Shown: piece after piece, positions 11,597 through 29,936 of the stretch | How the letters are laid out: each line of letters starts with the position of its first letter | Position numbering within the stretch: position 1 is the first letter of the stretch | NCBI GenBank assembly: GCA_041738475.1 | Contig: JBGSPT010000214.1 | Coordinates: 1-41,206 of the forward strand | Origin: Treponematales bacterium | GTDB lineage: Bacteria; Spirochaetota; Spirochaetia; Treponematales; UBA12059 | Direction of reading: 5' to 3' | Length of the DNA stretch: 41,206 bases | Notes under the pieces: generated by a model | Database searches by the model: none | What the model saw: the letters and a program-made list of their open reading frames with translations, nothing else | What the model was told of the DNA's origin: nothing | Made by a program: the position numbers and the translations under genes

Positions 11597-13684
11597 ATGT
11601 CCGATACCCAACGGGTCCTGAGGGACACCTTCCTGACGAACCGCTCCGACTTCGCCGTGGCGATCGGCGCCGTGGCCGTCGTCCTCATGATCATCATTCC
11701 CATCCCCACGGTCCTCCTGGACGCCTTGATGGCCTTCAATCTCACGATCAGCCTCCTAATCCTGCTGATCGTGCTCTATACCCGCAAGGCCACGGAGTTC
11801 TCCATCTTCCCGACCATGCTGCTGGTATCCACGATCTTCGGACTGGCGCTGAACATCTCCTCCACCCGCCTCATCCTGACCCAGGGCAGCCGTTTCGACG
11901 GCCGTCTGATCCGGGCTTTCTCCACCTTTGTGGTCGGCTCCGGCGGCACCGAAGGCCTGGTGATCGGCTTCATCATCTTCATCGTGATCATCGCGGTGCA
12001 GGCTATCGTCATCACCAAGGGGGCGACGCGGATAGCCGAGGTGGCCGCCCGGTTCACCCTGGACGGTTTGCCGGTCAAGCAGATGGCCATCGAGAGCGAA
12101 TTCAACTCCGGGGCCATCACCGAGGAGGAGGCCCGGAAACGGAAGGACGAGGTCCAGCGGGAGGTGGATTTCTACGGCCAGATGGACGGCGCATCCAAGT
12201 TCGTGTCCGGGAACGTGAAGGTCGGGATCTTCATCTCCATCATCAACATGCTGGGCGGATTCGTGGTGGGCATGGTGATCCACTCCGAGAGCTTCCAGAC
12301 CGCCATCGAAGCCTACACCTCCCTGACCATTGGGGACGGCCTTCTGTCCCAGCTGCCGGCCCTCCTGGTGTCCGTGGCCACGGGCATCATCGTCACCCGG
12401 GCGAACTCCCAGGGAACCTTCGGCGGGGACGTGACGGTCCAGTTCTCCCAGAACGCCCGGATCTACTGGATAGGGGCCGCCGTCCTGGCCGCCCTGGCCT
12501 TTCTTCCCGGCTTTCCCTGGTACGTCCTCCTTCCCATGGCGGCCTCCATGGCCTGGCTCGCGTTCCGACTATCCCGCAAGCAGCTTCGGGATGCGGAAGC
12601 CGCCAAGGCCCATCCCGCGGGGGCCAAGGCCAAGGGCGAGTCCGCCCAGGAGCTTTCCCCCGTGGTTCCCCTGGATCCCATAAGCCTGGAGCTGGGCTAC
12701 GGCCTCATACCCCTTGTTGACCGGGACAAGGGCGCGGAGCTCCTGGAGCGCATTACCCGGATCCGCAAGGAGAGCGCCCTGGACATGGGCCTGGTTGTGC
12801 CCCGCATCCGGATCATCGACAACATGCGCCTGGAGCCCAGCGAGTACTGTTTCAAGATCAAGGGCGTCGAAGTGGGCCGCGGGGTCATCCGGCTGGGGTA
12901 CTACATGGCGATCAATCCCGGCGGGGTGACAGAGGAGATCCCCGGGGAGAAGACCCGGGATCCGGCCTTCGGCCTTTCGGCCCTCTGGATAGCCGAGGAC
13001 CAGCGGGACAAGGCGGAACGGGCGGGCTATACCGTGGTGGACGCGCCCAGCATCGTGGCAACCCATCTCACGGAGATCATCAAGCGGCACGCCTCGGAGA
13101 TCCTGGGGCGCCAGGAGATCCAGTCCATCCTGGACACCCTCCGCAAGGACTATCCCGCGGTGGTGGAAGACATCCAGAAGCACCTCTCCCTGGGGGAGAT
13201 CCAGAAGGTCATCCAGGCCCTCCTGCGGGAGCAGGTGTCGGTACGCAACATGGTCGTGATCCTGGAGACCCTGGCGGACTACGCGGGCATCACCAAGGAC
13301 CCCGGTTTCCTGGCGGAGAAGGTGCGCCAGGCCCTGGGGAGGCAGATCTGTCTTCAGTACGCGGACGCGAAGAAGGTCCTGCACGTCCTGACCATAGATC
13401 CGGACCTGGAACAGAAGATCATCGAGAGTCGGGTGGAGTCAGGGATGGGCAATATAGCCGCCCTTGAACCGGCGGTGCAGAGGCAGTGGATCAAGGCTTT
13501 GACCCAGGCGGTCTCGGCGGTCCAGAAGCAGGGTTTCTTCCCGCTCATCCTCTGCTCCGAGGCCGCCCGAGCCCTGGTGAAGTCGAGCACCGAGCGGGAG
13601 ATTCCGGACCTCGTCGTGCTCTCGGTGCCCGAGGTGGTGTCGGACGTGAGCGTGGAAGCCATCGGTGAGATACGGCTGGAATAG
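11597..13684 (+). CDS. flhA: Flagellar export apparatus protein FlhA (FHIPEP family)
   Basis: A 695-aa protein. The N-terminal membrane domain carries the FHIPEP region (RFTLDGLPVKQMAIESEFNSGAITEEEARKRK). It also has a large cytoplasmic C-terminal domain. GGAGGAGG RBS. Confidence 0.95.
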   Translation: MSDTQRVLRDTFLTNRSDFAVAIGAVAVVLMIIIPIPTVLLDALMAFNLTISLLILLIVLYTRKATEFSIFPTMLLVSTIFGLALNISSTRLILTQGSRFDGRLIRAFSTFVVGSGGTEGLVIGFIIFIVIIAVQAIVITKGATRIAEVAARFTLDGLPVKQMAIESEFNSGAITEEEARKRKDEVQREVDFYGQMDGASKFVSGNVKVGIFISIINMLGGFVVGMVIHSESFQTAIEAYTSLTIGDGLLSQLPALLVSVATGIIVTRANSQGTFGGDVTVQFSQNARIYWIGAAVLAALAFLPGFPWYVLLPMAASMAWLAFRLSRKQLRDAEAAKAHPAGAKAKGESAQELSPVVPLDPISLELGYGLIPLVDRDKGAELLERITRIRKESALDMGLVVPRIRIIDNMRLEPSEYCFKIKGVEVGRGVIRLGYYMAINPGGVTEEIPGEKTRDPAFGLSALWIAEDQRDKAERAGYTVVDAPSIVATHLTEIIKRHASEILGRQEIQSILDTLRKDYPAVVEDIQKHLSLGEIQKVIQALLREQVSVRNMVVILETLADYAGITKDPGFLAEKVRQALGRQICLQYADAKKVLHVLTIDPDLEQKIIESRVESGMGNIAALEPAVQRQWIKALTQAVSAVQKQGFFPLILCSEAARALVKSSTEREIPDLVVLSVPEVVSDVSVEAIGEIRLE

Positions 13685-13714
13685 GCCGAACCAAGCGGGG
13701 AAGGAAGCGAAGGG

Positions 13715-14905
13715 ATGGAATACTTTACCGAACAAGGGGCCACCCACCGGGAAGCCATCGAGAGGGTGCGCGCCAAGTACGGGGATGCAGCCCAGGTCCT
13801 GACACAGCGGGTGGTTCGTACAGGCGGGGTCCTGGGCTTCTTCGCCCGGGAGGGCGTCGAGCTCACGGGCTACATCCGCCAGGAAGCGGCCAAGGAGACG
13901 GCCAACCGGAAGCTCGACCTGGAGGAGGAGAAGCGCCGGCTCCTGGCTTCCATCCAGGACCGGACCCTCCAGGAGGTCCTGTCCGAGGTGCGGGACCTGA
14001 AGCGCGCCGTGGAAACCTACCGGCCCCCCGAGGCGGAGTCGGACCATCCCAACCTGAAGGCCCTGGACGACCTCCTCGCCCTAAACGAGTTCACGGAGCC
14101 CTACCGCAGGGGGATCCTGGACCGCGTCCGATCGGAGTTTACCCTGGACGCCCTGGAGGACTGGGACAGCCTTCAGGAGGCGGCATTGGAGTGGATCGGA
14201 GAGGACATCTCCGTCTCCAAGACGCCTTCCGCTCCTGGCCCCCGGGTTTTCGTCCTGGTGGGTCCCACCGGGGTCGGAAAGACCACCACGATCGCCAAGC
14301 TCGCGGCCATCCACAAGATCGGGATCGGCGGCCTCCCGCCCCGGGACGTGCGGATGATCACCATAGACAGCTACCGCATCGGGGCTAAACAGCAGATCGA
14401 GACCTACGGCGACATCATGGGGGTGCCCACTTCCTGTGTGGAGACCGCAGAGGACCTGGCCAAGACGATCGCCCTGTACCAGGAAGTCGACCTGATCCTG
14501 GTGGACACCATAGGCAAGAGCCCCCGAGAGGCGGTGAAGCTGGCGGAGATGAAGCAGATCTTGGACGCCTGCGGTCCCCGGGCGGAGGTGCACCTGGCCA
14601 TGGCCGCCACGACCAAGGCCACGGACATGGAGGAGATTCTCCGGCAGTTCGAGCCCTTCGATTACCATGCCGTCGTGGTCACCAAACTGGACGAGACGAA
14701 CCGCCTGGGGAACGTGATCTCCGTCCTGTCCCAGCGGCGCAAGCCCGTGTCCTATCTCACCGACGGCCAGAAGGTGCCCCAGGACATCCAGCCTGCCGCG
14801 ATCCCGCGGTTCCTCCTGGGCCTGGAGGGTTTCAAGCTGGACCGCGACCGGATCGAGGAGAAATTTGGATCCCGCCGGGAGACCCGGGCGGAGGGGAGGC
14901 GTTGA
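13715..14905 (+). CDS. flhF: Flagellar biosynthesis SRP-type GTPase FlhF
   Basis: G1 motif LVGPTGVGKTTTIAKLA, G3 motif DTIGKSPRE, and G4 motif TKLDET. Confidence 0.9.
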   Translation: MEYFTEQGATHREAIERVRAKYGDAAQVLTQRVVRTGGVLGFFAREGVELTGYIRQEAAKETANRKLDLEEEKRRLLASIQDRTLQEVLSEVRDLKRAVETYRPPEAESDHPNLKALDDLLALNEFTEPYRRGILDRVRSEFTLDALEDWDSLQEAALEWIGEDISVSKTPSAPGPRVFVLVGPTGVGKTTTIAKLAAIHKIGIGGLPPRDVRMITIDSYRIGAKQQIETYGDIMGVPTSCVETAEDLAKTIALYQEVDLILVDTIGKSPREAVKLAEMKQILDACGPRAEVHLAMAATTKATDMEEILRQFEPFDYHAVVVTKLDETNRLGNVISVLSQRRKPVSYLTDGQKVPQDIQPAAIPRFLLGLEGFKLDRDRIEEKFGSRRETRAEGRR

Positions 14906-15789
14906 TGGAAGACCAGGCACAGAAACTCAGGGAGCTCATGCAGTCGGGGGCTCCGGCCTCCGCGTCGTCCCAGGGCGCCCCCTCCCAGAAGCGGACCCGT
15001 GTGATCACGGTGACCAGCGGCAAGGGCGGGGTCGGTAAGACCAACCTCTCGGTCAACCTGGCGCTGGCCTACGCCCAGCAGGGCAAGCGGGTCATCGTGC
15101 TGGACGCGGACCTCGGGCTCGCCAACGTGAACATCATGCTCAACATGATCCCCAAGTACAACCTCTACCACGTGATCCGGAAGCAGAAGACGATGAAGGA
15201 GATCATCCTGGACACGGACTACGGGATCCAGATCGTGGCCGGGGCTTCCGGGTTCTCCAAGATCGCCAACCTCTCCGAGGAGGAGAGGCAAAGCTTTATC
15301 AGTGAGCTGTATTCCCTGGCGGGGGCGGACATCATCATCATCGACACCAGCGCGGGGGTCTCCAGCAACGTGCTTTCCTTCGTGGCCGCCGCGGACGACG
15401 CCATCATAATAACGACCCCGGAGCCCACGGCCATCACGGACGCCTACGGGATCATCAAGATCATCGCCACGGAGGTGGAGAACCTGAACATCGGCCTCAA
15501 GCTGGTGGTCAACAGGGTGAAGACTGTGCTGGAGGGCAAGAGGGTGGCCGAACGGATCATCAACATCTCCGGGCAGTTCCTGAACCTCAAGGTGGAGTAT
15601 CTGGGCTGCATCTACGAGGATCCCATCGTGCCGGCATCGGTGATACGGCAAAAGCCTTTCATCCTCTCGGACCCCAAGTCCAAGGCCGCGATTTCGGTCC
15701 AGCACCTGGTCAGCCGGATCGAGAAGACCGATTTTTCCGACGACAAGGGCATCGGCCGGTTCATCCGGAAGCTCTTCGGGAGGGAATGA
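14905..15789 (+). CDS. flhG: MinD/ParA-family flagellar number regulator FlhG (YlxH/FleN)
   Basis: Deviant Walker A VTSGKGGVGKTNLSVNLA and DADLGLANV. ATG 14905 overlaps the flhF TGA (TGATG). The ORF track starts one codon earlier at TTG 14902. Confidence 0.85.
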   Translation: MEDQAQKLRELMQSGAPASASSQGAPSQKRTRVITVTSGKGGVGKTNLSVNLALAYAQQGKRVIVLDADLGLANVNIMLNMIPKYNLYHVIRKQKTMKEIILDTDYGIQIVAGASGFSKIANLSEEERQSFISELYSLAGADIIIIDTSAGVSSNVLSFVAAADDAIIITTPEPTAITDAYGIIKIIATEVENLNIGLKLVVNRVKTVLEGKRVAERIINISGQFLNLKVEYLGCIYEDPIVPASVIRQKPFILSDPKSKAAISVQHLVSRIEKTDFSDDKGIGRFIRKLFGRE

Positions 15790-15828
15790 GCTTGTCCGTC
15801 TTCTTGGAAGCCGGGAAAGGGCTTCGGC

Positions 15829-15858
15829 TTGACTCCGGCTTCGGCATTGCCATAAGAT
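15829..15858 (+). promoter_or_regulatory. Candidate sigma70-type promoter (TTGACT-N17-ATAAGA / N18-TAAGAT) ahead of the fliA sub-cluster
   Basis: TTGACT at 15829-15834 and ATAAGAT at 15852-15858, in the 133-nt flhG-ORF15923 gap. Confidence 0.4.
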
Positions 15859-15922
15859 GTAATGAGATATCCGGGAGCCGCGTACGGGCCGACGGTAATC
15901 CGCACGGGGAGGGGCGCCAGGG

Positions 15923-16573
15923 GTGAGTTCCGATATCCGGATCATGACGATCGCCGCCGGGGCCGCCTTCCTGATCTCCGCCCTGACGGGACTGGTCAGC
16001 CAGGTGGCCTTCGGCGCCCTTCTCCTGCGGGCAGCCGTTTCCGGAGCGGCCTTCGCCGCCCTCGGGGCCGGCGCTTCCTTCGTAGCCCGGCAATTCCTTC
16101 CGGAACTGTACGGAGAATCCCCGTCCCAGGAGACGGATTCCCCGGTTCCGTCGTCCGCGGATCCCGGGCATCATCTGAACATAGTTCTTCCCGGCGGGGA
16201 TGAGGCAGCCGAGGAGGTGGAAGAACTGCCGGAAGCTTCGGATCCGGGAAGCGTAGGGGAGGAGGATCTGCGGGACCTCGAGCGGGACGCGGCCGAGATC
16301 GGCACGGACAGCCTCGTCCCCGCGGAGGAGGCGAGCGAAGCGCCTCCATCCGTGTCCGCCCGGCCGCCCGCAACCTTCGACGACCTGGACGTCCTGCCGG
16401 ACCTGGACGGCCTATCGGACGTGTTCTCCGCCGCGGCCCATGAAGATATCGACGCGGGCGAGGCTCCCGCCCGGGATCCCATCTCCACCACCGGGGCTTC
16501 CCGGGACGGAGTGGACGCCGTGGCCATGGCCCAGGCCGTCCGTACATTGTTGAAACGGGATCAGAAAGGGTAA
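15923..16573 (+). CDS. Hypothetical membrane-anchored acidic protein (two predicted N-terminal TM helices, Asp/Glu/Pro-rich tail)
   Basis: GTG start. MTIAAGAAFLISALTGLVSQVAFGALLLRAAVSGAAFAALGAGASFVARQF is followed by an acidic low-complexity region. It fills the flhG-fliA gap without overlap. I do not recognise a family. Confidence 0.5.
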   Translation: MSSDIRIMTIAAGAAFLISALTGLVSQVAFGALLLRAAVSGAAFAALGAGASFVARQFLPELYGESPSQETDSPVPSSADPGHHLNIVLPGGDEAAEEVEELPEASDPGSVGEEDLRDLERDAAEIGTDSLVPAEEASEAPPSVSARPPATFDDLDVLPDLDGLSDVFSAAAHEDIDAGEAPARDPISTTGASRDGVDAVAMAQAVRTLLKRDQKG

Positions 16574-16579
16574 TCCGAG

Positions 16580-17368
16580 ATGAATAATCCCTTGTTGGAA
16601 CATACGACCGAAGAGGAACTCTGGGTGGAGTACAAGCGGAAACGGGATCCCGCCATCCGCGAGGCCTTCATCAAACAGTACGCTCCACTGGTCAAATACG
16701 TGGCCGGGAAGGTCGCTTCCTCGATGCCCCATTCCGTGGAATTCGAGGACCTCGTCGGCTTCGGCGTCTTCGGTCTCATCGACGCCATCGACAAGTTCGA
16801 TCCCGAAAAGAACGTCAAGTTCAAGACCTACGCGGTCACCCGCATCCGGGGTGCCATCTTCGACGAGCTTAGGTCCATAGACTGGGTTCCGCGGTCGGTC
16901 CGGCAAAAGACCAAGGAGCTGGAGGAGGCGATCCAGCAGCTGGAATCCAAACTTGGGCGCCCCGCCTCGGACACGGAGATCGCCCAGGCCATGGGTGTCA
17001 CCGAGGACGAGCTGGCCAAGACCATGCTGAAGATCTCCGGCACCGCCGTCCTCTCCCTCAACGACGTGTGGTATTCCGGGGACGACGCGGACAAGATCTC
17101 CATCGGCGACAGCATCGAAAGCCCGGGCAGCCTCAACCCGGATTCCATGATCGAGAGGGAGGAGATCCGGCGGGTAATCGTCCAGGCCATCCAGGAATTG
17201 CCCGATAAGGAAAAGAAGGTGCTCGTGCTCTACTATTACGAGGAGCTCACCCTCAAGGAGATCGGACAGGTGCTCGAGGTCACTGAATCCCGGGTCAGCC
17301 AGCTGCATACCAAGGCCATACTCCGGCTGAGGGCCAAACTCACGAACATCCGGAAAGGGATCGTATAG
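16580..17368 (+). CDS. fliA: Flagellar sigma factor sigma28 (FliA/WhiG family)
   Basis: Region 2 (FGVFGLIDAIDKFDPEKNVKFKTYAVTRIRGAIFDELR), region 3, and region 4 (KEKKVLVLYYYEELTLKEIGQVLEVTESRVSQLHTKAILRLR). Confidence 0.9.
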   Translation: MNNPLLEHTTEEELWVEYKRKRDPAIREAFIKQYAPLVKYVAGKVASSMPHSVEFEDLVGFGVFGLIDAIDKFDPEKNVKFKTYAVTRIRGAIFDELRSIDWVPRSVRQKTKELEEAIQQLESKLGRPASDTEIAQAMGVTEDELAKTMLKISGTAVLSLNDVWYSGDDADKISIGDSIESPGSLNPDSMIEREEIRRVIVQAIQELPDKEKKVLVLYYYEELTLKEIGQVLEVTESRVSQLHTKAILRLRAKLTNIRKGIV

Positions 17369-17370
17369 CC

Positions 17371-19356
17371 ATGCCCGGCGCGATCGGGCTTCCGGAAATA
17401 CAGGAACTCATGCGCCGATACCTGGACGAGGACAGGGTTAAAACCTCGGTGGCCGCGGAGGGAGCGTCCCTGGAGGAGGCCCTGCGCAACGCGGCGATCC
17501 AGCTGGAGTGCCCCGTGGCTTCTTTGGATTTCGAGGTCGTGGAAAAGGGGGTTTCCGGAACCCTGGGTCTCGGACGGAAACCTTGGAAGATACGGGCATA
17601 CAAGGCTTCCGCCAAGAAAGAGGTGGCCGCCGCGGAAACCGCGTTCGGAGAGGGCATCCTCTCGGAGGATTTCGGAGCGGATCAGGAGCCGAAGGACAGG
17701 GACGGATCCGTCTTCGTGAGGCTCTCCCAGGACGGCGCCATGCTCAAGGTCATCCCCCCCGCGGGCCGGGGTCGCAAGGCTACCGAGAAAAGCGCCATGG
17801 ACAGGCTGCACGAGCGCGGGGTTCACGATATCGACGAGCCCCTCGTCCGGGAAGTCGTGCGCCTGGCTTCCGGAGAATACGTGCTGGTCGGCAAGTTCGT
17901 CATCAATCCCGCCAACGACGCCCTGATGACCGTGGACGTGGGAGACCAGGACATGAAGGCCTACGTCATGCTCACCGCGCCGGGACCCGGAGGCTGCGAC
18001 CTCTCCGCGGACTCCATCCTGTCCTTCCTGCGGAACAACAAGGTCGTGTACGGCATCAATGAGGACGTCCTGCAGGAGCTGGAGGACCGTCCCCGGTACC
18101 GGGAGCCCACCCTCGCGGCGGAAGGTTCCCGTCCCCAGAACGGCCGGGACGCCTACATGCAGTTCAACTTCAGCACCGACAAGACCGAGATCCACCTGAA
18201 GGAGAGTTCCGACGGGCGCGTCAATTTCAAGGAACTGGGCTTGATCCAGAACGTGGTGGCCGGACAGCCCTTGGCGCGCAAGGTGCCCGCGGAGAACGCG
18301 ATTCCGGGTCGGACAGTGACCGGGAAGATACTCCCCGCCCGGAACGGAAAGGACATCCCCCTGCCCCTGGGCAAGAACGTCCGCGTCTCCGAAGACGGGG
18401 TCACGGTCCTGGCGGAAATAAACGGCCAGGTGACCTATATCGGCGGAAAGATCAACGTGGAGGAAGTCTTCACGGTCCAGGGCGACGTGAACCTGAAATC
18501 CGGGAATGTCATGTTCCTGGGTACGGTGCTCGTGCAGGGTAACGTGGAGGACGGCTTCATCGTAAAGGCCTCGGGAAACATCGAAGTACACGGAAACGTA
18601 GGTAAAAGCGAGCTCGTGGCCGAGGGCGACATCATCGTCCATCAGGGTATCACGGGAAAATCGGGGGGCTCCATCCTCGCGGGCAAGAACGTCTGGGCGA
18701 AATTCATAGAAAACGCCAAGGTCGAGGCCGGCGAGTCCGTCATCGTGTCCGACGGCATCGTAAACTCCGACGTCACCGCCAACAAGAAGATCATCTGCCA
18801 GGGAAAACGCGCCGCCATGGTCGGCGGGCACTTCCGAGCCTGCGAGGAGATCAACACCAAGACCCTGGGCTCCCCCGTGGGCGGCACCGAGACGGTCTGC
18901 GAAGTCGGCTACGACCCCAAGAGCAAGGAGCGGATGGACCATCTCAACCAACAGGTTTCCCAGTTGAAGCACCAGATCGAGGAGATGGACAAGAACATCT
19001 CCACCCTCCAGATCCTCAAGAAACAGCGGAAGACCCTGCCGGACGAGAAGGAGGCCATACTCCAGGAGAGCGTGGCCAAACGCGGGGAGATCGCGGAAGA
19101 AGCCGCAGGGCTTGCCAAGGAGATCGAATCCATACAGGCCTATCTTACCAATCTGAAGACCCGGGGCAAGGTCAGCGTCTCCGGCAAGGCCCACCCCGGG
19201 GTCCGGATCATCATCAAGGACGTGGTGGAGGAGCTCAAGACCGACCAGAAGGGTATAACCTTCTACCTGGACAACATGCTGATCAAGAAGACGAAGTACG
19301 AGGAATTGGACGACGAAAACGTCCGCAGGGGGCCGGATGCCTATAAAGCCGATTGA
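17371..19356 (+). CDS. DUF342/FapA-family protein (flagellar-assembly-associated, beta-helix repeats plus C-terminal coiled coil)
   Basis: The repetitive G-x-V/I beta-helix region (GNVMFLGTVLVQGNVEDGFIVKASGNIEVHGNVGKSELVAEGDIIVHQGI...) and the KRAAMVGGHFRACEEINTKTLGSPVGGTETVCEVGYDP motif are characteristic of DUF342. It starts 3 nt after the fliA stop. Confidence 0.8.
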   Translation: MPGAIGLPEIQELMRRYLDEDRVKTSVAAEGASLEEALRNAAIQLECPVASLDFEVVEKGVSGTLGLGRKPWKIRAYKASAKKEVAAAETAFGEGILSEDFGADQEPKDRDGSVFVRLSQDGAMLKVIPPAGRGRKATEKSAMDRLHERGVHDIDEPLVREVVRLASGEYVLVGKFVINPANDALMTVDVGDQDMKAYVMLTAPGPGGCDLSADSILSFLRNNKVVYGINEDVLQELEDRPRYREPTLAAEGSRPQNGRDAYMQFNFSTDKTEIHLKESSDGRVNFKELGLIQNVVAGQPLARKVPAENAIPGRTVTGKILPARNGKDIPLPLGKNVRVSEDGVTVLAEINGQVTYIGGKINVEEVFTVQGDVNLKSGNVMFLGTVLVQGNVEDGFIVKASGNIEVHGNVGKSELVAEGDIIVHQGITGKSGGSILAGKNVWAKFIENAKVEAGESVIVSDGIVNSDVTANKKIICQGKRAAMVGGHFRACEEINTKTLGSPVGGTETVCEVGYDPKSKERMDHLNQQVSQLKHQIEEMDKNISTLQILKKQRKTLPDEKEAILQESVAKRGEIAEEAAGLAKEIESIQAYLTNLKTRGKVSVSGKAHPGVRIIIKDVVEELKTDQKGITFYLDNMLIKKTKYEELDDENVRRGPDAYKAD

Positions 19357-19660
19357 CCTCCAGACCCTGTTCCTGCAGATGAATCAGGTCAGCAAGGAGC
19401 AGGCGGCCGCCAAGGACGGAGCCGTTCTTCAGCAGTCCATCCAGGGGGCCGTCCTGGCCAAGAAACGGGAGGACGAAGTCCGTTCCGTCCAGAAGCCCCA
19501 GGCTGACGAGGGAACCGGCAGGATCGGCGACCGTGAATCCGGCTCCGAAGCCGGGGAGGAATCGGAAGGCCGGAAGCGCGGCCGGAATCCCGAGGAGTCC
19601 GATGAGCCGGAGGTCGTGAAGGATCCCGACCTGGGCCGCCGGATCGATATCCAAGGATAG
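19337..19660 (+). CDS. Small hypothetical protein (107 aa, charged)
   Basis: The ATG follows GCAGGGGG and the ORF overlaps the DUF342 gene end by 20 nt. The N-terminus MPIKPIDLQTLFLQMNQVSKEQ is helical-looking and the remainder is acidic and disordered. Support comes only from context and coupling. Confidence 0.4.
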   Translation: MPIKPIDLQTLFLQMNQVSKEQAAAKDGAVLQQSIQGAVLAKKREDEVRSVQKPQADEGTGRIGDRESGSEAGEESEGRKRGRNPEESDEPEVVKDPDLGRRIDIQG

Positions 19661-19662
19661 CC

Positions 19663-20391
19663 ATGACGCAGTTCTCAGTCCTTCTCGCCGTGAACCTGGC
19701 CGGCTTGGTCCTTATATTCCTCTATGTCCGCGGGCGCATACGGAAGGCCCTGGAGGTGGAAGGACTTCAGGAACGGCTGAGGGAAGAGCTGGGCCAGCTC
19801 GTCCGGGACCTGAACCAGACTACGGATCGAAATATCACGCTCCTCGAGGACGCCGTGCGTTCCCTGAAAGATGCGGTGGTCGAGGCGGATCGCAGGGCGG
19901 TGGTGCTCCGCAGGGAAGCCGAGCGGAGGATCCAGGAAGGGGCCGTGTACGACAGGATGGGGCGCATGCGGCAGACGGCTTCCGTCGGCGGAGAACCCGA
20001 CCGTACGGATGGCGCTCCGGTGCCCGTGGGACGCGCAGTCGGGCACCCGGTATCCTCATCGCGGGATCCGGAACCATATCAGGCCGACCGGAAAGATCCG
20101 GCCCGGCCCGGCGCGCCCGGGAGCCCCAGAACCGTACCCCGTTCCGAGGCCGGGCACGACTTTCCGGGCGCCGGGCCAGCGCCGCTTCAGCCTTCCATAC
20201 CCTTCGTCTCCTTCTCCTCCACGCCCTTGAGATCCGCCCCTCCCCTCAAGGAGGAGGTGCTGTCTTTGAACCGTCGGGGAATCTCCTCGGATCTCATCGC
20301 GGCAAAGCTGGGGGTCACGGTGGCCGAGGTCGAGCTGATCGTGTCCCTGGAGGAGCAGAAAGGCCTGGCGGGCCGGGAGGGGGAACCGTGA
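19663..20391 (+). CDS. Hypothetical membrane-anchored protein with coiled coil and a C-terminal HTH-like motif
   Basis: N-terminal TM (FSVLLAVNLAGLVLIFLYV) and a coiled coil (LQERLREELGQLVRDLNQTTDRNITLLEDAVRSLKD). The C-terminus LNRRGISSDLIAAKLGVTVAEVELIVSLEE resembles a small HTH. It starts 3 nt after the preceding stop, and its stop overlaps the next gene's start (GTGA). Confidence 0.5.
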   Translation: MTQFSVLLAVNLAGLVLIFLYVRGRIRKALEVEGLQERLREELGQLVRDLNQTTDRNITLLEDAVRSLKDAVVEADRRAVVLRREAERRIQEGAVYDRMGRMRQTASVGGEPDRTDGAPVPVGRAVGHPVSSSRDPEPYQADRKDPARPGAPGSPRTVPRSEAGHDFPGAGPAPLQPSIPFVSFSSTPLRSAPPLKEEVLSLNRRGISSDLIAAKLGVTVAEVELIVSLEEQKGLAGREGEP

Positions 20392-22055
20392 CCCGCAGCA
20401 TGCTGGGCATCGACTTCGGCACCACAAATACCCTGTGCGCCTGGATCGATAACCAAAAGCCCCAGATGATTCCGAACGACCGGGGCAGCCGAACCACTCC
20501 ATCCGTGGTAGCCCTTTCCCATTCCGGCGAGATCCTGGTGGGCGAATCCGCGAAAAACCAGGCGGTCGCGTCTCCCCGGATGACCGTGGCCGGGATCAAG
20601 CGGCGCCTGGGAAGCCGGGACCCCCTCCGCCTAGGCGGACGGTCCTTCCTGCCCGAGGAGGCGGCTTCCTGGATCTTCGCCAAGGTGAAGCGGGACGCTG
20701 AGTCCTTCCTGGGTTTTCCGGTCGAACAGGCGGTTGTTTCCGTGCCCGCCCGCTTCGGGGAGGCCCAGCGCAGGGCCGTCAAGGAAGCCGCCCGACGGGC
20801 GGGCCTCGAGGTTCCCAGGCTGGTGAACGAGCCTACCGCGGCAGCGGTAGCCCGGGCCTTCTTGAATCCCGGGGACTCCGATTCCGAACGGATCGTGCTG
20901 GTCTACGATTTCGGGGGGGGGACCTTCGACGTGACAGTCCTCGCCGCCCGGGGGCGTACCTGCGAGGTACTTTCCTCGGCGGGGGATGACCGGCTGGGAG
21001 GCATGGATATCGACCTTCTGCTCTACCGCGAGGCGGCCGAGGCGTTTCGCCGGGACTGGGGAGTGGATCCGGATTCGGATCCCTTCCTGGCCCAGCAGCT
21101 CATGGACCTTTCCGAGCGGGCTAAGATCGAGCTTTCGTCCCGAACCGAGGCTTCCATTACCATTCCCTTCCTCAACGCGGGGAAAGGCGTCGCCCATCCC
21201 TCCTTCGACCTCGGTCGTGATCGGCTGGAGGACCTTCTCCGGCCCCTGGCGGAACGGAGCCTTGCCCTGGTCCGGACCGCCCTCGACGAGGCGGGCAAAA
21301 AACCCCGGGAAGTGGGCGCCCTCGTGCTGTCCGGAGGATCCAGCCGAATTCCCCTGGTCCGGAGGATGATCGCGGAGCTTCTGCCACTGGAACCTGAGGG
21401 CCGGGTGAATCCCGAGGAGATCGTCGCGGTCGGCGCGGCGGTGGAGGCCGCGATCCTGTCGGGACGGGCTGGCGGATTCTCGGTGCGGGACGTCAATTCC
21501 AGGACCTACGGGGTGGAGATCGAGGGAGGCCGCTTCGTGGAGCTTCTTCCTAGGAACGAGCCCCTGCCTGCGCGGAAGCGCAGGGTGTTCACGACGGTCG
21601 CGGACGATCAGGAGTCCGTGGAGATCCATATCCTCCAAGGAGATTCGGGTTCCGCCGCGGAGAACACCTCCCTGGGACGATTCCTGCTGCCCGGTATTCG
21701 TAAGGCCGGCAGGGGAGAGCCGAAGATACAGGTCGAGTTTTCCATCGACGAGAGCGACCTGTTGCGGGTGCGCGCCTTGGATCTGGATACCCGCACGGAG
21801 CAGGCGGTGGTCGTCACGGGTTCCGGCGCGGACTCCGGGGATTCGGAAAAGCTCGCGCGCCTGGCCGCCCGGGTCCGGGCCCTTGCCGACTCGGAGGACA
21901 TCGACAACGGTTTCCGCTCCGAGGTCGAGGAAATCCTCGCCCGGGCCGCGGCGGCCGTGGATTCCGGGTCCGAAGAGGATCGGAGGCTTGCCCGGTCTTC
22001 GCTGGAGGCGGTGATCGGGGAACTCCTGGCCCTGAAGAGGGTCGCCTTCCCATGA
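20388..22055 (+). CDS. Hsp70-family ATPase paralogue with a shortened C-terminal lid (555 aa)
   Basis: Phosphate-1 motif GIDFGTTNT, VSVPARFGEAQRRAVKEAARRAGLEVPRLVNEPTAAAV, phosphate-2 motif VYDFGGGTFDVTVL, and adenosine motif LVLSGGSSRIPLV. A beta-sandwich SBD is present (VEIHILQGDSGSAAENTSLGRFLL...IQVEFSIDESDLLRV), with only about 70 aa after it. GGAGG lies 7 nt before GTG 20388. Confidence 0.85.
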   Translation: MTRSMLGIDFGTTNTLCAWIDNQKPQMIPNDRGSRTTPSVVALSHSGEILVGESAKNQAVASPRMTVAGIKRRLGSRDPLRLGGRSFLPEEAASWIFAKVKRDAESFLGFPVEQAVVSVPARFGEAQRRAVKEAARRAGLEVPRLVNEPTAAAVARAFLNPGDSDSERIVLVYDFGGGTFDVTVLAARGRTCEVLSSAGDDRLGGMDIDLLLYREAAEAFRRDWGVDPDSDPFLAQQLMDLSERAKIELSSRTEASITIPFLNAGKGVAHPSFDLGRDRLEDLLRPLAERSLALVRTALDEAGKKPREVGALVLSGGSSRIPLVRRMIAELLPLEPEGRVNPEEIVAVGAAVEAAILSGRAGGFSVRDVNSRTYGVEIEGGRFVELLPRNEPLPARKRRVFTTVADDQESVEIHILQGDSGSAAENTSLGRFLLPGIRKAGRGEPKIQVEFSIDESDLLRVRALDLDTRTEQAVVVTGSGADSGDSEKLARLAARVRALADSEDIDNGFRSEVEEILARAAAAVDSGSEEDRRLARSSLEAVIGELLALKRVAFP

Positions 22056-22660
22056 GGAGCGATCGGGAGCTCTGGGCCGTGTTCGGCCTGCCGCCGGGCG
22101 CGGATTCCCGGGACTTGAAGCGGGCGTTCCGCCAGCTCACAAAGCGTTATCATCCCGACTCGTCCAAGGATCCCGCCACGGCCCGGCGGTTTTCCCGGGT
22201 CGTCCGCGTGTACAAGCTCCTGTCCCTGAAGACCGGGGAGCCCCGGGAGGACTCGAAGGGGGAGCCCTTCCTCGACCGGGAGGAGGACCTTTTCGCCCTG
22301 GGTACCGAGTTTACAGTTTCCCGGGACGAACGCACCCGAGTGGAGGCGGTGAAGCGGCTGGGGCTGTCCGGCAAGAAGAGCGCCTATATCTTCCTGCGAA
22401 AGGCCCTGTACGACGATTCCCCGGAAGTAGCGGCCCAGGCGGTCCGATCCGTGGCACTTCTGGGAATCCGACAGGCGGACGGGGAGATCGCCAGCCTCTT
22501 TTCCCGTTCCGGCCCGGGCCTTAAAAAAACGATCCTGGAGACGGCCCGGGGGACCCGGGAACCCGTGTTCCTCCCGGCGCTGAGGGCGGCCGCTTCGGAT
22601 CCGAACGGGGAGGTCTCCGCGGCGGCGTCGGAGATCCTGGGCCTTATCCTGGGCTGTTGA
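22052..22660 (+). CDS. J-domain protein with C-terminal HEAT/PBS-lyase-like repeats (202 aa)
   Basis: J-domain with an HPD tripeptide (DLKRAFRQLTKRYHPDSSKD). This is followed by RVEAVKRLGLSG...YDDSPEVAAQAVRSVALLG...AASDPNGEVSAAASEIL, which looks like HEAT repeats. There is no G/F or Zn-finger region. ATGA overlap with the Hsp70 paralogue. Confidence 0.8.
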   Translation: MRSDRELWAVFGLPPGADSRDLKRAFRQLTKRYHPDSSKDPATARRFSRVVRVYKLLSLKTGEPREDSKGEPFLDREEDLFALGTEFTVSRDERTRVEAVKRLGLSGKKSAYIFLRKALYDDSPEVAAQAVRSVALLGIRQADGEIASLFSRSGPGLKKTILETARGTREPVFLPALRAAASDPNGEVSAAASEILGLILGC

Positions 22661-22702
22661 TCTCGGGTTCCGGGAACCGGAAGGAGGCAGGTATTCGGCC
22701 CT

Positions 22703-24067
22703 TCATTCCTCCGGCCGGGCGCCGTCGATACCGTATTCCTGGAGTTTCTGGTACAGGGTCTTGCGCCCGATGCCCAGGATTTCCGCGGTCCGGCTTTTAT
22801 TGCCCCCCTGGGCGGCCAGGGTCTCCCGTATCAGTATCTTTTCCGCCTCCGCCAGGGAGGAGCCTGAGGGGACCCGGATCGTGTCGTCCTCCTGGGCCTC
22901 CCGGATTCCCGGCGGCAGGTCCTCCAGGGTGACCAGGCTGCCTCTGGCCAGGACGACGGAACTTTCAACGCAGTTCCGGAGCTCCCGGACGTTTCCGGGC
23001 CAGGTATACGCGAAGAAGGCTGCCCGCACCTTCGTATCGAACCCCTCGAGGCTCTTGCCGTTCTCCTCGGAGAATTCCCGCAAGAACGCGCCCGCCAGGA
23101 GCGGTATATCGTCCTTCCGTTCCCTGAGGGGCGGGACATGGATGTTGACCACGTTCAGCCGATAGTAGAGATCTTCCCGGAAGCTTCCCCGCTCGATCTC
23201 CGCCTTGAGGTCACGGTTGGTGGCCGCGATCACGCGGACATCCACCTCCAGGGTTTCCTCGCCTCCGACCCGTTCGAATTTCCGTTCCTGCAGCACCCGG
23301 AGAATCTTGATCTGGACGTTCTGGTTGATCTCACCGATCTCGTCCAGGAAGAGAGTTCCCTCGTTGGCGAGTTCGAAGCGGCCCCGTTTCCTGCCCGCCG
23401 CCCCCGTAAACGCCCCCTTCTCATGGCCGAAGAGCTCGCTTTCCAGCAGGGACTCCGCGAGGGCTGCGCAGTGGACCTTCACGAAGGGCTTGTCCGCCCG
23501 GGGGGAAAGGTTGTGCAGGGCGTCCGCGATGAGTTCCTTGCCGACCCCGCTTTCCCCGGTGATGAGGACGCTTGCCCGGGTGGGCGCCACACGGCGGAGG
23601 ACATCGAAGATCTTCTTCATCTCCGGACTGCGGCCGATGATCGAGGAGATCCTCTTCTGGCTTTCTATCTCCCCCTGGAGTTCCTGGTTCTGGCGTTCGA
23701 GCTCCCGGCTTTCCAGGGCGCGGCGGATCAGCAGGGACAGGTGGTCCAGGTTGACCGGCTTGGTGATAAAGTCGAAGGCTCCCCCGCGCATGGAATCCAC
23801 GGCGTCCTCAATGGTCCCGTGCCCGGTCAGGACGATCACGGGCATCCCGGGATAGGCCCCGGCGACGCGCTTGAGGATTTCGTTTCCGGAGAGTTTCGGC
23901 ATGCGCAGGTCCGTGACGATCAGGTCGATGCGGCCCTCCTGCACGGCCCGCATCGCCTCCTCGCCGTCCGCGGCCAGGGCCACGTCATAGCCGTCCAGCC
24001 GCAGGGCCTCCGCCAGCCCTTCCCGGATGTTCCGCTCGTCGTCCGCCACAAGGATCGTGAATTTCAA
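22703..24067 (-). CDS. Sigma54-dependent response regulator / enhancer-binding protein (REC-AAA+-Fis HTH; NtrC/Rrp2-like)
   Basis: REC domain (ILVADDE...DLIVTDLRMPKLSG), Walker A GESGVGKE, the sigma54-contact loop GAFTGA (HEKGAFTGAAG), and a C-terminal HTH (NKSRTAEILGIGRKTLYQKL). The proposed TTG 24067 start (MKFTILVADDE) follows GGGGAGG. It overlaps the kinase stop by 2 nt. The ORF-track ATG is at 24100. Confidence 0.9.
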   Translation of the reverse strand: MKFTILVADDERNIREGLAEALRLDGYDVALAADGEEAMRAVQEGRIDLIVTDLRMPKLSGNEILKRVAGAYPGMPVIVLTGHGTIEDAVDSMRGGAFDFITKPVNLDHLSLLIRRALESRELERQNQELQGEIESQKRISSIIGRSPEMKKIFDVLRRVAPTRASVLITGESGVGKELIADALHNLSPRADKPFVKVHCAALAESLLESELFGHEKGAFTGAAGRKRGRFELANEGTLFLDEIGEINQNVQIKILRVLQERKFERVGGEETLEVDVRVIAATNRDLKAEIERGSFREDLYYRLNVVNIHVPPLRERKDDIPLLAGAFLREFSEENGKSLEGFDTKVRAAFFAYTWPGNVRELRNCVESSVVLARGSLVTLEDLPPGIREAQEDDTIRVPSGSSLAEAEKILIRETLAAQGGNKSRTAEILGIGRKTLYQKLQEYGIDGARPEE

Positions 24068-25269
24068 GATGCCTCCCCGGCCCGGAACTCCGCGGTCCAT
24101 GCCTCCGAGCCCGAGTCGTGGGACAGAAGGCGGCGCTCCGCGGGAGGCAGGGGCAGGGTGATGGTGAACGCCGTGCCCTCGCCCTCCTTGGATCGGACCC
24201 CGATCTCCCCGCCGTGCTCCTTGATGATCTTGAAGGTCAGGGTGAGCCCGAGGCCCGTACCCGTCTCCTTGGTCGTGAAATAGGGTTCGAAGATCTTGGG
24301 AAGGTTTTCCTCGGGGATTCCCGTGCCCGTATCCGCCACGGTCAGGAGAATCCCGTCGTCTCCCCGGTCGGTGCTCAAGGTCAGGGTTCCGCCCCGGGGC
24401 ATGGCCGCCAGGGCGTTCTGCACGAGGTTCAGGACGGCCTGCTTCATGTACCGGGGATCCAGGCTCAGGCGCGGAACCGCGGGGGAGAGGTTGCGCTCCA
24501 GCCTGACCGCGGCCCGGTCGATCTCCGGGGCCAGAAAATCCAGGAGGTCCGAGATGAGTCCGTTCAGGTCGGTTTCCATGGGGTTGATGTCCATCGGGCG
24601 GACCGCGAACAGGAAGTCCACGACGATCCTGTTGAGCCGGTCTATCTCCTCGTCCACCACGTCGAGGTAGCGGTGGATGGTCCCGGAGCGCTCGTCGCAG
24701 GACGCCTTGAGGGCCTTCCGCATCAGCTGGACGTGGATGGAAAGGGATCCCAGGGGATTCTTGATCTCGTGGGCGACCCCCGCGGCCAGGGTCGTGAGGG
24801 AGGCGAGATTTTCCGCCCGCCTGAGCTGGGCTTCCTTCCGGCGCTTGTCCGTGACCTCCTCGACATGGATCAGGTTCCCGCGGATCCGCTGGTCCCGCAC
24901 CAGGGGACTGATCGTGATCGACACGATCCGCGTGGAGCCCTTGGAGTCCAGGGCGAACTCCCGGTCCATGCGGGTTTCCTCGCTCTCAAGGGTTTCCCGG
25001 AGGAATCCCGCGATCTCCTCGTCCGCTACGCTTTCCCAGACGGGCCGGTCGTACACGTCCAGGTAGGCCAGGGGCAGAAGGCGCTCGGCGGACTTGTTGA
25101 AGAGGGTGGGCCGATGGCCGGAATCGCATACGACGATCCCGTCCAGCATGGAGTCCAACACCGTGCCCATCCTCTCGTTCTCATCCGCGAGGATGGCAAG
25201 GAGCCTGCGGATCTGCTCCTCGTTCATGCGGGGGGCCTTGGCCAGGGCCCGTTCCAGGAACCTTCTCAC
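24064..25269 (-). CDS. Cytoplasmic PAS-domain sensor histidine kinase (HisKA + HATPase_c; Hk2/NtrB-like)
   Basis: PAS domain (VLDSMLDGIVVCDSGHRPTLFNKSAERLL), H-box AAGVAHEIKNPLGSL, N-box LNLVQNALAAM, G1 motif DTGTGIPEE, and G2 motif GTGLGLTLT. No TM segment. GTG 25269 forms a GTGA overlap with the holB stop. An alternative start is ATG 25227. The track start at 25623 runs through holB and is rejected. Confidence 0.85.
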   Translation of the reverse strand: MRRFLERALAKAPRMNEEQIRRLLAILADENERMGTVLDSMLDGIVVCDSGHRPTLFNKSAERLLPLAYLDVYDRPVWESVADEEIAGFLRETLESEETRMDREFALDSKGSTRIVSITISPLVRDQRIRGNLIHVEEVTDKRRKEAQLRRAENLASLTTLAAGVAHEIKNPLGSLSIHVQLMRKALKASCDERSGTIHRYLDVVDEEIDRLNRIVVDFLFAVRPMDINPMETDLNGLISDLLDFLAPEIDRAAVRLERNLSPAVPRLSLDPRYMKQAVLNLVQNALAAMPRGGTLTLSTDRGDDGILLTVADTGTGIPEENLPKIFEPYFTTKETGTGLGLTLTFKIIKEHGGEIGVRSKEGEGTAFTITLPLPPAERRLLSHDSGSEAWTAEFRAGEAS

Positions 25270-26555
25270 GGGCCGCTCCGGAGGGGCTCCGCCATGGCTT
25301 CGGCCAGACGCTCGGCCAGGGCCGGGGGGGAGAGGTTGTAGGCCTCGTACCGGAGCTGGGCGTCCCGGATCGAGGCGGCCCATCCGGCCAGTATCGAGTC
25401 GGTCCGGGCATCGGAGACCCGGGCCTTGGATCGGACCAGCCGGGCCAGGCTCCGCAGGAACGCGGGGAAGAGGTACGACAAAGTGTCGTCTCCGGATCCG
25501 AAGCCCTTGGTGGCCGCCGAAATGTCGGAAAGAGCCGTGATGACGCCCGTATCCGTGGCGTCGCTGGAAAAGTCGAGGAGGGGGTCGGGTATGAACGCTC
25601 CGGCCCGGGAAGCCTGGTAGCAAACCGCGGAGAGAAACCGGAACGCGTACTCGTCCGTGGCGGACTCGGGCAGGGGCTTCCGGGCTGCCAGGAATTCGTC
25701 CAAGGGAAGGTCCGCCTCCCCCGGGGCGGCTCGGAAGACCTTGGAGAGGATCTCCCGGGATGCCCGGGAATCCCGGGCCCGGAACGAATAGGTTCGGACC
25801 CGGGAGAGGATGGTGGGCATGAGGGCCGCGGGGCGCGAAGACAGGAGGATGAACCGCGAGGTGGCCGGGGGTTCCTCCAGGATCTTGAGCAGGGCGTTGC
25901 GGGCTCCCTCCAGCATGCGCTCGGCGTTCTCGATCACCGCCACCTTCATCTTCCCGTAGGGGGCCAGTCTGGCCCAGCGCTCGACGGCGCGGACCTGGAA
26001 GATGGGCAGGGAGTCGGAAAGCAGGGACTCCAGCTTGTCCGCCGCGGCCAGGGCCTTGGCCGCCGCCTGGGCGATCTCCGGGAGGGGCAGGCCGGAGTCT
26101 TCGGAATCCGGACCCGCCAGTTCCGCGAGTTCCTCCAGGGTCTGGAGGAGGGCCGCCGCCTTGGACAGGCGAGATTCCTCGCCCTCGAAAAGAACAGGAT
26201 CGAAGCGACGGGCCAGCTTCCGGAGGGCCCGGAAAAAAAGGAACCGGGCGGCGCGGTTGGGCTGGCGGCCCAGGACCTCTCCGGCGGCCTTGATCTCCGC
26301 CCGCAAGGAACGCGGCCCCATCAAAAGGAGGTCCGGGTGCGAAAGGGTCCTGTGGCGCTCGCAGGAGGGACAGGGGCAGTTCCAGGCCGCGGCACCGGTT
26401 TCGCAGGACAGGGCCCGGGCGGTCTCCAGGGCGGCCGTGAGCTTTCCTGCGTTCTCCGGTCCCGCGAAGAGCAGGGAAGGGGGAAGCTCGCCCCGGGACA
26501 GGTCGGAGCGGAGGATCCGGACCGCCTCCTCCTGGCCGATCAGGTTCTCGTACAC
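25266..26555 (-). CDS. holB: DNA polymerase III delta-prime subunit-like clamp-loader protein (HolB), extended C-terminus
   Basis: MYENLIGQEEAVRILRSDLSRGELPPSLLFAGPENAGKLTAALETARALSCE...CPCPSCERHRTLSHPDLLLMGP is the delta-prime AAA+/Zn module. SRF-like ILEEPP and TILSRV motifs are present. GTG start lies 1 nt after the cvpA stop. Confidence 0.75.
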   Translation of the reverse strand: MYENLIGQEEAVRILRSDLSRGELPPSLLFAGPENAGKLTAALETARALSCETGAAAWNCPCPSCERHRTLSHPDLLLMGPRSLRAEIKAAGEVLGRQPNRAARFLFFRALRKLARRFDPVLFEGEESRLSKAAALLQTLEELAELAGPDSEDSGLPLPEIAQAAAKALAAADKLESLLSDSLPIFQVRAVERWARLAPYGKMKVAVIENAERMLEGARNALLKILEEPPATSRFILLSSRPAALMPTILSRVRTYSFRARDSRASREILSKVFRAAPGEADLPLDEFLAARKPLPESATDEYAFRFLSAVCYQASRAGAFIPDPLLDFSSDATDTGVITALSDISAATKGFGSGDDTLSYLFPAFLRSLARLVRSKARVSDARTDSILAGWAASIRDAQLRYEAYNLSPPALAERLAEAMAEPLRSGP

Positions 26556-29752: not shown

Positions 29753-29804
29753 GGGGACCTCCTGGTGGAACCGGCACCGCGGGATGTTTCCTTTCGATAC
29801 GATC

Positions 29805-29834
29805 ATGATAGCCGGGACCGGACGGAACTTTCAA
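29805..29834 (-). promoter_or_regulatory. Candidate sigma70-type promoter for the pgi-murG-cvpA-holB-hk-rr operon (TTGAAA-N18-TATCAT on the minus strand)
   Basis: Minus-strand TTGAAA (plus 29829-29834) and TATCAT (plus 29805-29810), about 50 nt upstream of the pgi ATG. Confidence 0.4.
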
Positions 29835-29936
29835 GGCCGAAGCATCTGCGCAGGAAGGGACCCGGGGGGCGATCCGGATCGGATCCTCCGCTCTTTCATC
29901 CTCCGGGAACGCATGGTATACTTTTTCGGGGGCGTG

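Follow-up and report, generated by a model that had tools for sequence, protein, structure and literature searches.

A probable dedicated Hsp70/J-protein pair encoded at the end of a spirochaete flagellar superoperon

The window analyzed in this study, a 41,206-nt stretch of contig JBGSPT010000214.1 from a Treponematales bacterium, carries on its + strand a spirochaete flagellar superoperon with the gene order fliK-flgE-motA-motB-fliL-fliM-fliN/Y-fliP-fliR-flhB-flhA-flhF-flhG, followed by a FlgV-like gene, fliA, fapA, a 107-aa open reading frame (ORF), a 242-aa ORF, an Hsp70 gene, and a J-domain gene. The final two genes of this array are the subject of this report. They encode a short Hsp70 paralogue of 555 aa (20388..22055, +), assigned by Pfam HSP70, structure alignment, and an AlphaFold2 (AF2) model, and a 202-aa putative class-C J-domain co-chaperone with HEAT-like repeats (22052..22660, +; hereafter J-HEAT), assigned by Pfam DnaJ and HEAT_2, a family alignment, AF2, and Foldseek. 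The stop codon of the 242-aa ORF overlaps the start codon of the Hsp70 gene by 4 nt (GTGA at 20388), and the Hsp70 and J-HEAT genes likewise overlap by 4 nt (ATGA at 22052). A sequence-only reading of the window had proposed that these genes form a dedicated Hsp70/J pair distinct from the housekeeping DnaK/DnaJ/GrpE set, with a client linked to periplasmic-flagellum assembly or sigma28 control. All ORF coordinates given in that reading were correct, and both junctions were confirmed in the sequence. No grpE, full-length dnaJ, or second Hsp70 gene was found within the 41-kb window, in agreement with its statement that neither grpE nor a canonical dnaJ is visible.

The Hsp70 belongs to the Hsp70 family, with a score of 444 bits against Pfam HSP70 (PF00012; cut-off, 20.6). 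The motifs GIDFGTTNT, DFGGGTFD, and LSGGSSRIP were present, and the beta-sandwich that had been recognized by eye was recovered by alignment to DnaK. In the structure-based alignment, the protein was colinear with residues 4-485 of Geobacillus DnaK and comprised a nucleotide-binding domain (NBD; 1-357), a linker (~358-367), a beta-sandwich substrate-binding domain (~365-475), which aligned to residues 394-507 of E. coli DnaK, and a three-helix tail (484-553). Beyond the equivalent of DnaK residue 507, 73 residues remain, compared with 131 in E. coli DnaK, 112 in HscA, and 82 in HscC. The AF2 model (pLDDT, 89.4; pTM, 0.80) placed the tail helices at 484-502, 507-526, and 529-553, and it superposed on domain-docked ATP-type structures of DnaK/BiP with TM-scores of 0.80-0.83, against 0.52-0.58 for the undocked ADP state. 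Because of the three predicted tail helices and the best superposition on docked ATP-type structures, the protein is predicted to be a complete allosteric-type Hsp70 with a shortened, not absent, lid. The earlier description of its end, a short tail with neither a full helical lid nor an EEVD-type terminus, is consistent with this. The EEVD end is a motif of eukaryotic cytosolic Hsp70s, and its absence from a bacterial protein is therefore uninformative.

Residue mapping indicated that the window Hsp70 keeps the residues for catalysis and those for J contact (at the positions of DnaK R167, N170, and T173), as well as the hydrophobic residues of the substrate pocket (at the positions of DnaK F426, V436, and I438). 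The arch is altered relative to DnaK (M404 to E and A429 to V), and the interdomain linker reads FSVRD where DnaK has VLLLD. The 24-residue NBD insertion of E. coli DnaK is missing. All of the Hsp70s encoded in flagellar operons lack this insertion, which is shared by E. coli DnaK and HscA, and Geobacillus DnaK and E. coli HscC are likewise without it; the insert-less NBD could derive either from an ancient paralogue or from transfer from a Gram-positive-type lineage.

The window Hsp70 scored under every curated NCBIfam equivalog cut-off. For DnaK, the scores were 464.7 bits against a cut-off of 648 (NF001413) and 454 bits against 822.55 (TIGR02350); for HscA, the score was 359.3 bits against 708.55 (TIGR01991), and the genomic context is flagellar, not isc. 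The protein was 31% identical to HscA and 32% identical to HscC, the latter value being lower than that to DnaK. In a distance-based neighbor-joining tree with a single HscC sequence, the core set of syntenic Hsp70s formed a clade that excluded the E. coli DnaK group in 99/100 and HscC in 98/100 bootstrap replicates. Both the profile scores and the phylogeny against canonical DnaK support the view that this Hsp70 is not the housekeeping DnaK. It is accordingly very improbable that a housekeeping DnaK or general stress chaperone sits by chance after the flagellar operon. Such an origin would be compatible with a full-length allosteric-type Hsp70 with a conserved pocket and with the finding of a single Hsp70 gene in the 41-kb window, the part of the genome covered here. 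It is contradicted by the equivalog scores, the separate clade, the absence of grpE and canonical dnaJ nearby, an adjacent J protein with no Pfam match to G/F or Zn-finger regions, a position conserved across very divergent spirochaetes, and a Borrelia orthologue that is non-essential and coexists with an Hsp70 listed as an essential candidate (see below).

Orthology to E. coli HscC, with a DjlC-like partner and no special link to motility, was also considered. HscC (Hsc62) is a specialized, non-essential Hsp70 that has its own J partner (DjlC) encoded nearby (PMC8215388). Like the window Hsp70, it is short at the C-terminus and lacks the NBD insert, and the two Hsp70s are nearly equal in total length (556 aa in HscC and 555 aa here) and similar in tail length (82 and 73 residues). 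In contrast, the beta-sandwich insertion of HscC is absent from the window Hsp70, identity is low, HscC lies outside the clade, and its genomic context is unrelated to motility. To our knowledge, DjlC, which is compared here by description, contains no HEAT repeats. It is also much larger than J-HEAT (483 aa) and is described as membrane-inserted (PMC8215388). We regard HscC orthology as scarcely credible. Both the housekeeping DnaK and the HscC orthologue are disfavored by the equivalog scores, the tree, the conserved gene context, and the lack of an HscC-type insertion. The pair also resembles HscA/HscB, an Hsp70 with its dedicated class-C J protein, whose genes lie with those of the client pathway (isc operon). 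HscA differs in carrying the NBD insert and a longer lid, and in its partner and operon.

The J-HEAT protein matched Pfam DnaJ (43.1 bits; cut-off, 27.8) and HEAT_2 (34.8 bits; cut-off, 27.7). It consists of a J domain (1-61) with an HPD motif at 34-36, a disordered linker (64-75), and approximately four PBS/HEAT-like repeats (80-200). The HPD motif was invariant across the 28 J-HEAT sequences of the family alignment, and no Pfam match to G/F or Zn-finger regions was obtained; an intact HPD without these regions is the pattern of class C (type III) J proteins. The previous description of a J domain in which HEAT/PBS-lyase-like repeats replace the G/F and Zn-finger regions is therefore borne out. 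The AF2 model (pLDDT, 89) showed eight helices between 80 and 200, in keeping with the alpha-solenoid fold of PBS-lyase/HEAT-like repeats. Foldseek retrieved alphaRep (rmsd ~3 Å over ~119 residues), CpcE/F phycocyanin lyase, and deoxyhypusine hydroxylase, all at E-values of 3e-3 or weaker. The pTM of the model was 0.86 despite the low-confidence linker at 64-75, which suggests that the J domain may pack against the HEAT domain, an arrangement that could be auto-inhibitory.

In distant relatives of J-HEAT, the linker varied from ~20 to ~190 residues, and both domains persisted. A profile of the HEAT domain alone gave 35 strong matches, all but one with a J domain; the single J-less match was a 156-aa protein on a 660-bp contig, which is probably a fragment. 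As this HEAT domain was found almost only fused to J domains, the window protein is most simply read as a class-C J protein with a specificity domain private to the J-HEAT family. Searches with the single sequence and with the HEAT profile retrieved 29 and 38 proteins, respectively, all from uncultured spirochaetes; the names Treponema, Leptospira, and Brachyspira did not appear among them, which is not proof of absence from these genera.

To assess the conservation of the linkage, loci were picked via Hsp70 homologues of falling similarity, including cluster representatives from an exhaustive hidden Markov model search, and the gene content of their contigs was inspected. The order flhF-flhG-flgV-fliA-fapA-small ORF-TM+HTH-Hsp70-J, in which TM+HTH denotes the counterpart of the 242-aa ORF, predicted to contain a transmembrane segment and a helix-turn-helix domain, was common to 12 loci (L001, L003, L005-L007, L085, L089, L091-L093, L096, and L097), including members of Rectinemataceae (L005) and Treponemataceae (L006). 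The Hsp70s of the syntenic loci were 33-43% identical to one another, about as distant as each is from E. coli DnaK. The synteny of the Hsp70/J-HEAT pair with fliA and flhG thus extends deep into the spirochaetes; Borrelia, which has no fliA, and one further locus (L095) deviate from it, as described below. In L085, the Hsp70 orthologue (5808-7513) is split into two overlapping ORFs of 176 and 404 aa, reflecting a frameshift or an assembly error.

As a second anchor, the J-HEAT gene was searched for in metagenomes, yielding 35 loci. The Hsp70 gene lay directly upstream of J-HEAT in all 24 loci with enough upstream DNA, and fapA and fliA were found further upstream in 12/12. These 35 loci are from fairly close relatives and therefore add numbers, not phylogenetic depth. 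An activated-sludge contig (L099) carried a nearly identical array, with FlhA and FliA 99% identical to those of the window, which points to an uncultured wastewater member of Spirochaetia as the probable source, and the closest named proteins were entries from metagenome-assembled genomes (MAGs) labeled "Spirochaetia bacterium". A scan of contigs with the Hsp70 alignment gave 80 loci, mostly canonical DnaKs at ~40% identity, of which three were spirochaete paralogues.

The genes immediately upstream of the pair form the tightly spaced tail module of the spirochaete flagellar superoperon, the gene order of which was identical in 13 other loci and in 12/12 metagenome loci. The genes flhF (13715-14905, +) and flhG (14902-15789, +) were assigned from their ORFs, the Pfam families of the orthologous loci (SRP54 for flhF, ParA/CbiA for flhG), and tblastn synteny. 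A 216-aa FlgV-like protein (15923..16573, +), with positional orthologues in all loci, contains two hydrophobic helices, the second bearing an Arg residue, a long acidic/polar tail, and a conserved hydrophobic-basic C-terminal peptide. It gave no Pfam or NCBIfam match, and its sequence fits the description of FlgV (BB0268 family; PMC11607428). The sigma factor gene fliA (sigma28, FliA/WhiG family; 16580..17368, +) was recognized by NCBIfam NF004935 (420 bits; cut-off, 343) and TIGR02479 (297 bits). It is followed by a gene for a 661-aa FapA/DUF342 protein (17371..19356, +) with Jag_N, FapA_N, and beta-solenoid domains (Pfam FapA, 241 bits; FapA_N, 174 bits).

Two further proteins are encoded between fapA and the Hsp70 gene. 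The 107-aa protein (19337..19660, +) has an N-terminal PIDLQTLF...QVGKEQ motif, a charged disordered center, and a C-terminal DPxLGxxIDISG motif, and an alignment of 10 orthologues, including that of Borrelia, defined a family of ~105 aa with conserved termini and a charged disordered middle. It matched no Pfam family at E-values up to 10, including YjfB_motility (PF14070), and no NCBIfam family; it is equivalent to the "YjfB" gene of PMC11607428 by position only. The 242-aa TM+HTH protein (19663..20391, +) is anchored to the membrane and belongs to a family with a conserved alignment; it starts with a hydrophobic helix, continues through a coiled coil and a disordered spacer, and ends in an HTH. 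It showed weak Pfam matches to DUF2802 and DUF6115, the DUF6115 cut-off being attained by its orthologue in L085, and corresponds to the "TM + HTH" gene of PMC11607428. The window has exactly the order of the FlgV-sigma28-FapA-YjfB-TM+HTH submodule described by Zamba-Campero et al. (Nat Commun 2024, PMC11607428), from flhF to TM+HTH. The text of that report contains no occurrence of Hsp70 or DnaK and takes up no J protein, and its supplements mention neither Hsp70 nor DnaJ. The Hsp70/J pair is an additional, spirochaete-associated extension of this module.

The intergenic distances from flgV to the J-HEAT gene ranged from -20 to +6 nt, the 107-aa ORF overlapping the end of fapA by 20 nt. Together with the Pfam and NCBIfam matches, these overlaps substantiate the previously noted chain from fliA through DUF342/FapA, the 107-aa ORF, and the HTH-like membrane protein to the pair. 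A scan for consensus sigma70 promoters and terminators revealed no signal above chance inside the array, and no match to a sigma28-type promoter (TAAA-N14-16-GCCGATAA-like) was found on the + strand. The only sizeable gap in the array from flhA to the J-HEAT gene is one of 133 nt (15790-15922). It contains the sole sigma70-like promoter match within 13000-24500 (15829-15858, +), a number of matches at chance level; this site could be an internal start for a flgV-fliA-...-Hsp70-J sub-operon.

Beyond the J-HEAT gene, the array gives way to a convergent sigma54 two-component pair and then to housekeeping functions. The pair, comprising a sigma54-dependent response regulator (465 aa) and a PAS histidine kinase, occupies 22703-25623 on the - strand, 42 nt from the J-HEAT stop codon. 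The same two genes occur shortly downstream in L003/L004, with two serine-dehydratase genes between them and the J gene. Further downstream, 29751-31184 (+) encodes a 477-aa protein with a PilZ domain at the C-terminus, and relatives carry a DUF1577+PilZ gene at the equivalent position; this protein is a possible cyclic di-GMP effector near the motility locus. An anti-phage defense function was dismissed, as PADLOC gave no hits.

An Hsp70 of the same clade is present in Borrelia. A cluster of "Hsp70 family proteins" of relapsing-fever Borrelia (502 aa; L090) is encoded at the same place, after flgV-fapA-small ORF-DUF6115 protein; this locus has neither fliA nor a J gene, and a convergent signal peptidase gene comes next. 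In B. burgdorferi, the flgB superoperon runs from bb0294 to bb0264, with bb0264 (dnaK-1) as the last gene, and bb0268 has been reported to be co-transcribed with bb0272-bb0264 (PMC11607428). The 1476-nt gene bb0264 overlaps bb0265 and has the convergent lepB-3 as its downstream neighbor (supplement of PMC3485029). The statement in the sequence-only reading of a second Hsp70 gene near the flhF/flhG end of the Borrelia operon is thus confirmed by bb0264 and by L090. The Borrelia and window genes share the slot after flhF-flhG-flgV-fapA-small protein-TM+HTH, the clade, the lack of an NBD insert, and the overlap with the upstream gene. They differ in that Borrelia has no fliA and no J-HEAT gene and in that its Hsp70 has fewer residues (491 aa in B. 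burgdorferi; 502 aa in relapsing-fever species, with only ~30 past the beta-sandwich) and carries another residue in place of the arginine at DnaK R167. For bb0264, four transposon insertions gave viable mutants, and, unlike dnaK-1, the core Borrelia Hsp70 is listed as an essential candidate (PMC3485029). DnaK-1 was counted among candidate virulence determinants, one mutant showing reduced mouse infectivity with ~47% of tissue sites positive (PMC3485029). In the literature searched, no paper assigning a function to bb0264 was found.

Lid length and J dependence vary within the family. Tails of only 3-30 residues were found in L095 and L097, which have a J gene, and in Borrelia (L090) and a Nitrospinota locus (L094), which have no adjacent J gene, and the helical tail appears from these sequences to be dispensable in some lineages. 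The J-contact arginine is replaced in several family members, among them P0228, which has a J-HEAT neighbor. A correlation of J-gene loss with loss of the lid or of this arginine was considered and rejected, as L095 and L097 are lidless with a J gene and P0228 combines a replaced arginine with J-HEAT.

Some of the loci connect the pair to chemotaxis genes. Genes for cheA or cheW-cheA follow directly after the J gene in L085, L089, L091, and L096. In a Spirochaetota MAG (L095:5684-11488), the order is cheB-comFB-response regulator/HD-cheW-MCP-Hsp70-J-HEAT-grpE-HEAT/cyclase; the Hsp70 of 510 aa is lidless, and a 1014-aa HEAT-repeat protein with a guanylate/adenylate cyclase domain is encoded after the locus's own grpE. 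In a Nitrospinota MAG (L094:4147-6658), a short Hsp70 of 495 aa, with 12 residues past the beta-sandwich and no adjacent J gene, is encoded directly after STAS and cheW genes, which hints that lidless Hsp70s may be tied to chemosensory genes outside spirochaetes. These contexts would suit a pair that serves the chemosensory system by assembling, positioning, or turning over CheA/CheW/receptor arrays, and not flagellar assembly. A precedent is offered by the Hsp70-like StkA, which is reported to act in the Dif chemosensory-type pathway of Myxococcus (PMC4319316). Nevertheless, no che gene adjoins the pair in the window or in most loci, the constant neighbors being fapA, the small protein gene, and the TM+HTH gene, and the Borrelia Hsp70 likewise has no neighboring che gene. 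A chemosensory role in place of flagellar assembly is a serious alternative, which we consider unlikely.

Regulation of sigma28 by the pair is a further alternative. DnaK/DnaJ act on sigma32, and HscC is reported to affect sigma70. With such control of sigma factors by Hsp70s as a precedent (reviewed in PMC8215388), the pair could hold and release FliA, replacing or aiding a FlgM-type checkpoint; the tightly packed array also includes fliA, four genes upstream, and no flgM was recognized within the window. Against this, Borrelia has no fliA and retains the Hsp70, the small protein, and the TM+HTH protein in place, and the pair in L095 has no sigma factor nearby. With the Hsp70 still in place in Borrelia after the loss of fliA, sigma28 is improbable as the only client, and we judge regulation of sigma28 as the function of the pair to be quite improbable. 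Of the original proposal, the dedicated, non-housekeeping, and flagellar-linked character of the pair is upheld by the cut-offs, the clade, the synteny, and the co-transcription in Borrelia, and the part concerning sigma28 control is weakened.

Our preferred explanation is that the Hsp70 and J-HEAT probably constitute a dedicated machine apart from the housekeeping DnaK, one that is co-expressed with the flagellar/chemotaxis tail module and linked to it in function. The pair would be made from the tail of the flagellar superoperon, co-transcribed and translationally coupled with the fliA-fapA-small protein-TM+HTH submodule. Following the canonical Hsp70 cycle, the Hsp70 would act as an ATP-driven clamp composed of the ATPase, the linker, the peptide-binding beta-sandwich, and the short three-helix lid, and the altered charged arch together with the short lid may give it narrow specificity. 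J-HEAT would be its private co-chaperone, its HPD motif triggering ATP hydrolysis on the Hsp70 and its HEAT-repeat domain selecting the client or docking the machine at its site. We infer that a specific client with a role in motility is bound or remodeled by the machine where the flagellar/chemosensory apparatus faces the cytoplasm, in which case loss of the machine would be expected to give a motility phenotype. The likeliest clients would be long disordered stretches in one of the co-encoded proteins, namely the TM+HTH protein, the small conserved protein, or FlgV.

Several observations weigh against this explanation. The Borrelia Hsp70 has no J partner and, as noted, the J-contact arginine is lost in several members, so that J dependence is not uniform in the family; the lid also appears dispensable in some lineages. 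The L095 pair is placed among chemotaxis genes, and no flagellar genes are within reach. The signature-tagged mutagenesis screen in B. burgdorferi gives reduced infectivity for the bb0264 mutant and lists no motility defect (PMC3485029). In addition, most loci are from uncultured relatives and are therefore not phylogenetically independent, and the identity of the client is a guess.

That the Borrelia motility operon ends with an Hsp70 gene has been on record since genome annotation. A distinct, deeply conserved spirochaete Hsp70 clade, an ancestral form with a private J-HEAT co-chaperone, and an Hsp70/J pair traveling with motility and chemotaxis genes were not described in the literature searched. 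The bacterial Hsp70 types listed in a review are DnaK, HscA, and HscC, with no mention of a motility-linked type (PMC8215388), and the recent reviews and surveys of Hsp70 and J proteins that were searched do not mention spirochaetes or flagella. A functional likeness exists to SglK and StkA of Myxococcus xanthus, Hsp70 paralogues that act in motility-related regulation and not in general folding; they differ in serving type IV pilus/exopolysaccharide-dependent gliding, not flagella, and neither a J-HEAT partner nor a flagellar-operon context is described for them (PMC8265645, PMC4319316).

Across Spirochaetia, the agents of Lyme disease and relapsing fever among them, this Hsp70 clade occupies a fixed place at the end of the superoperon, usually accompanied by a private J-HEAT. 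It bears on the open question of how late flagellar assembly is controlled in spirochaetes, especially in Borrelia, which has no sigma28. With its genes next to those of FlgV, FapA, and a membrane HTH protein, a conserved ATP-driven remodeler offers a concrete candidate, for which bb0264 transposon mutants, such as T05TC397 and T06TC349, exist. As a broader proposal, which we hold to be possible and not yet probable, the spirochaete Hsp70 and J-HEAT may represent a fourth specialized class of bacterial Hsp70 beside DnaK, HscA, and HscC, one that serves periplasmic flagella as an ATP-driven factor in assembly or at a checkpoint. By acting on disordered cytoplasmic segments of the TM+HTH protein, the small protein, or FlgV, it might influence flagellar number, placement, or late-stage export, and Borrelia dnaK-1 might be a stripped-down survivor that aids infectivity through motility. 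The pair would also provide a clean example of a non-J domain, the HEAT repeats, retargeting an Hsp70.

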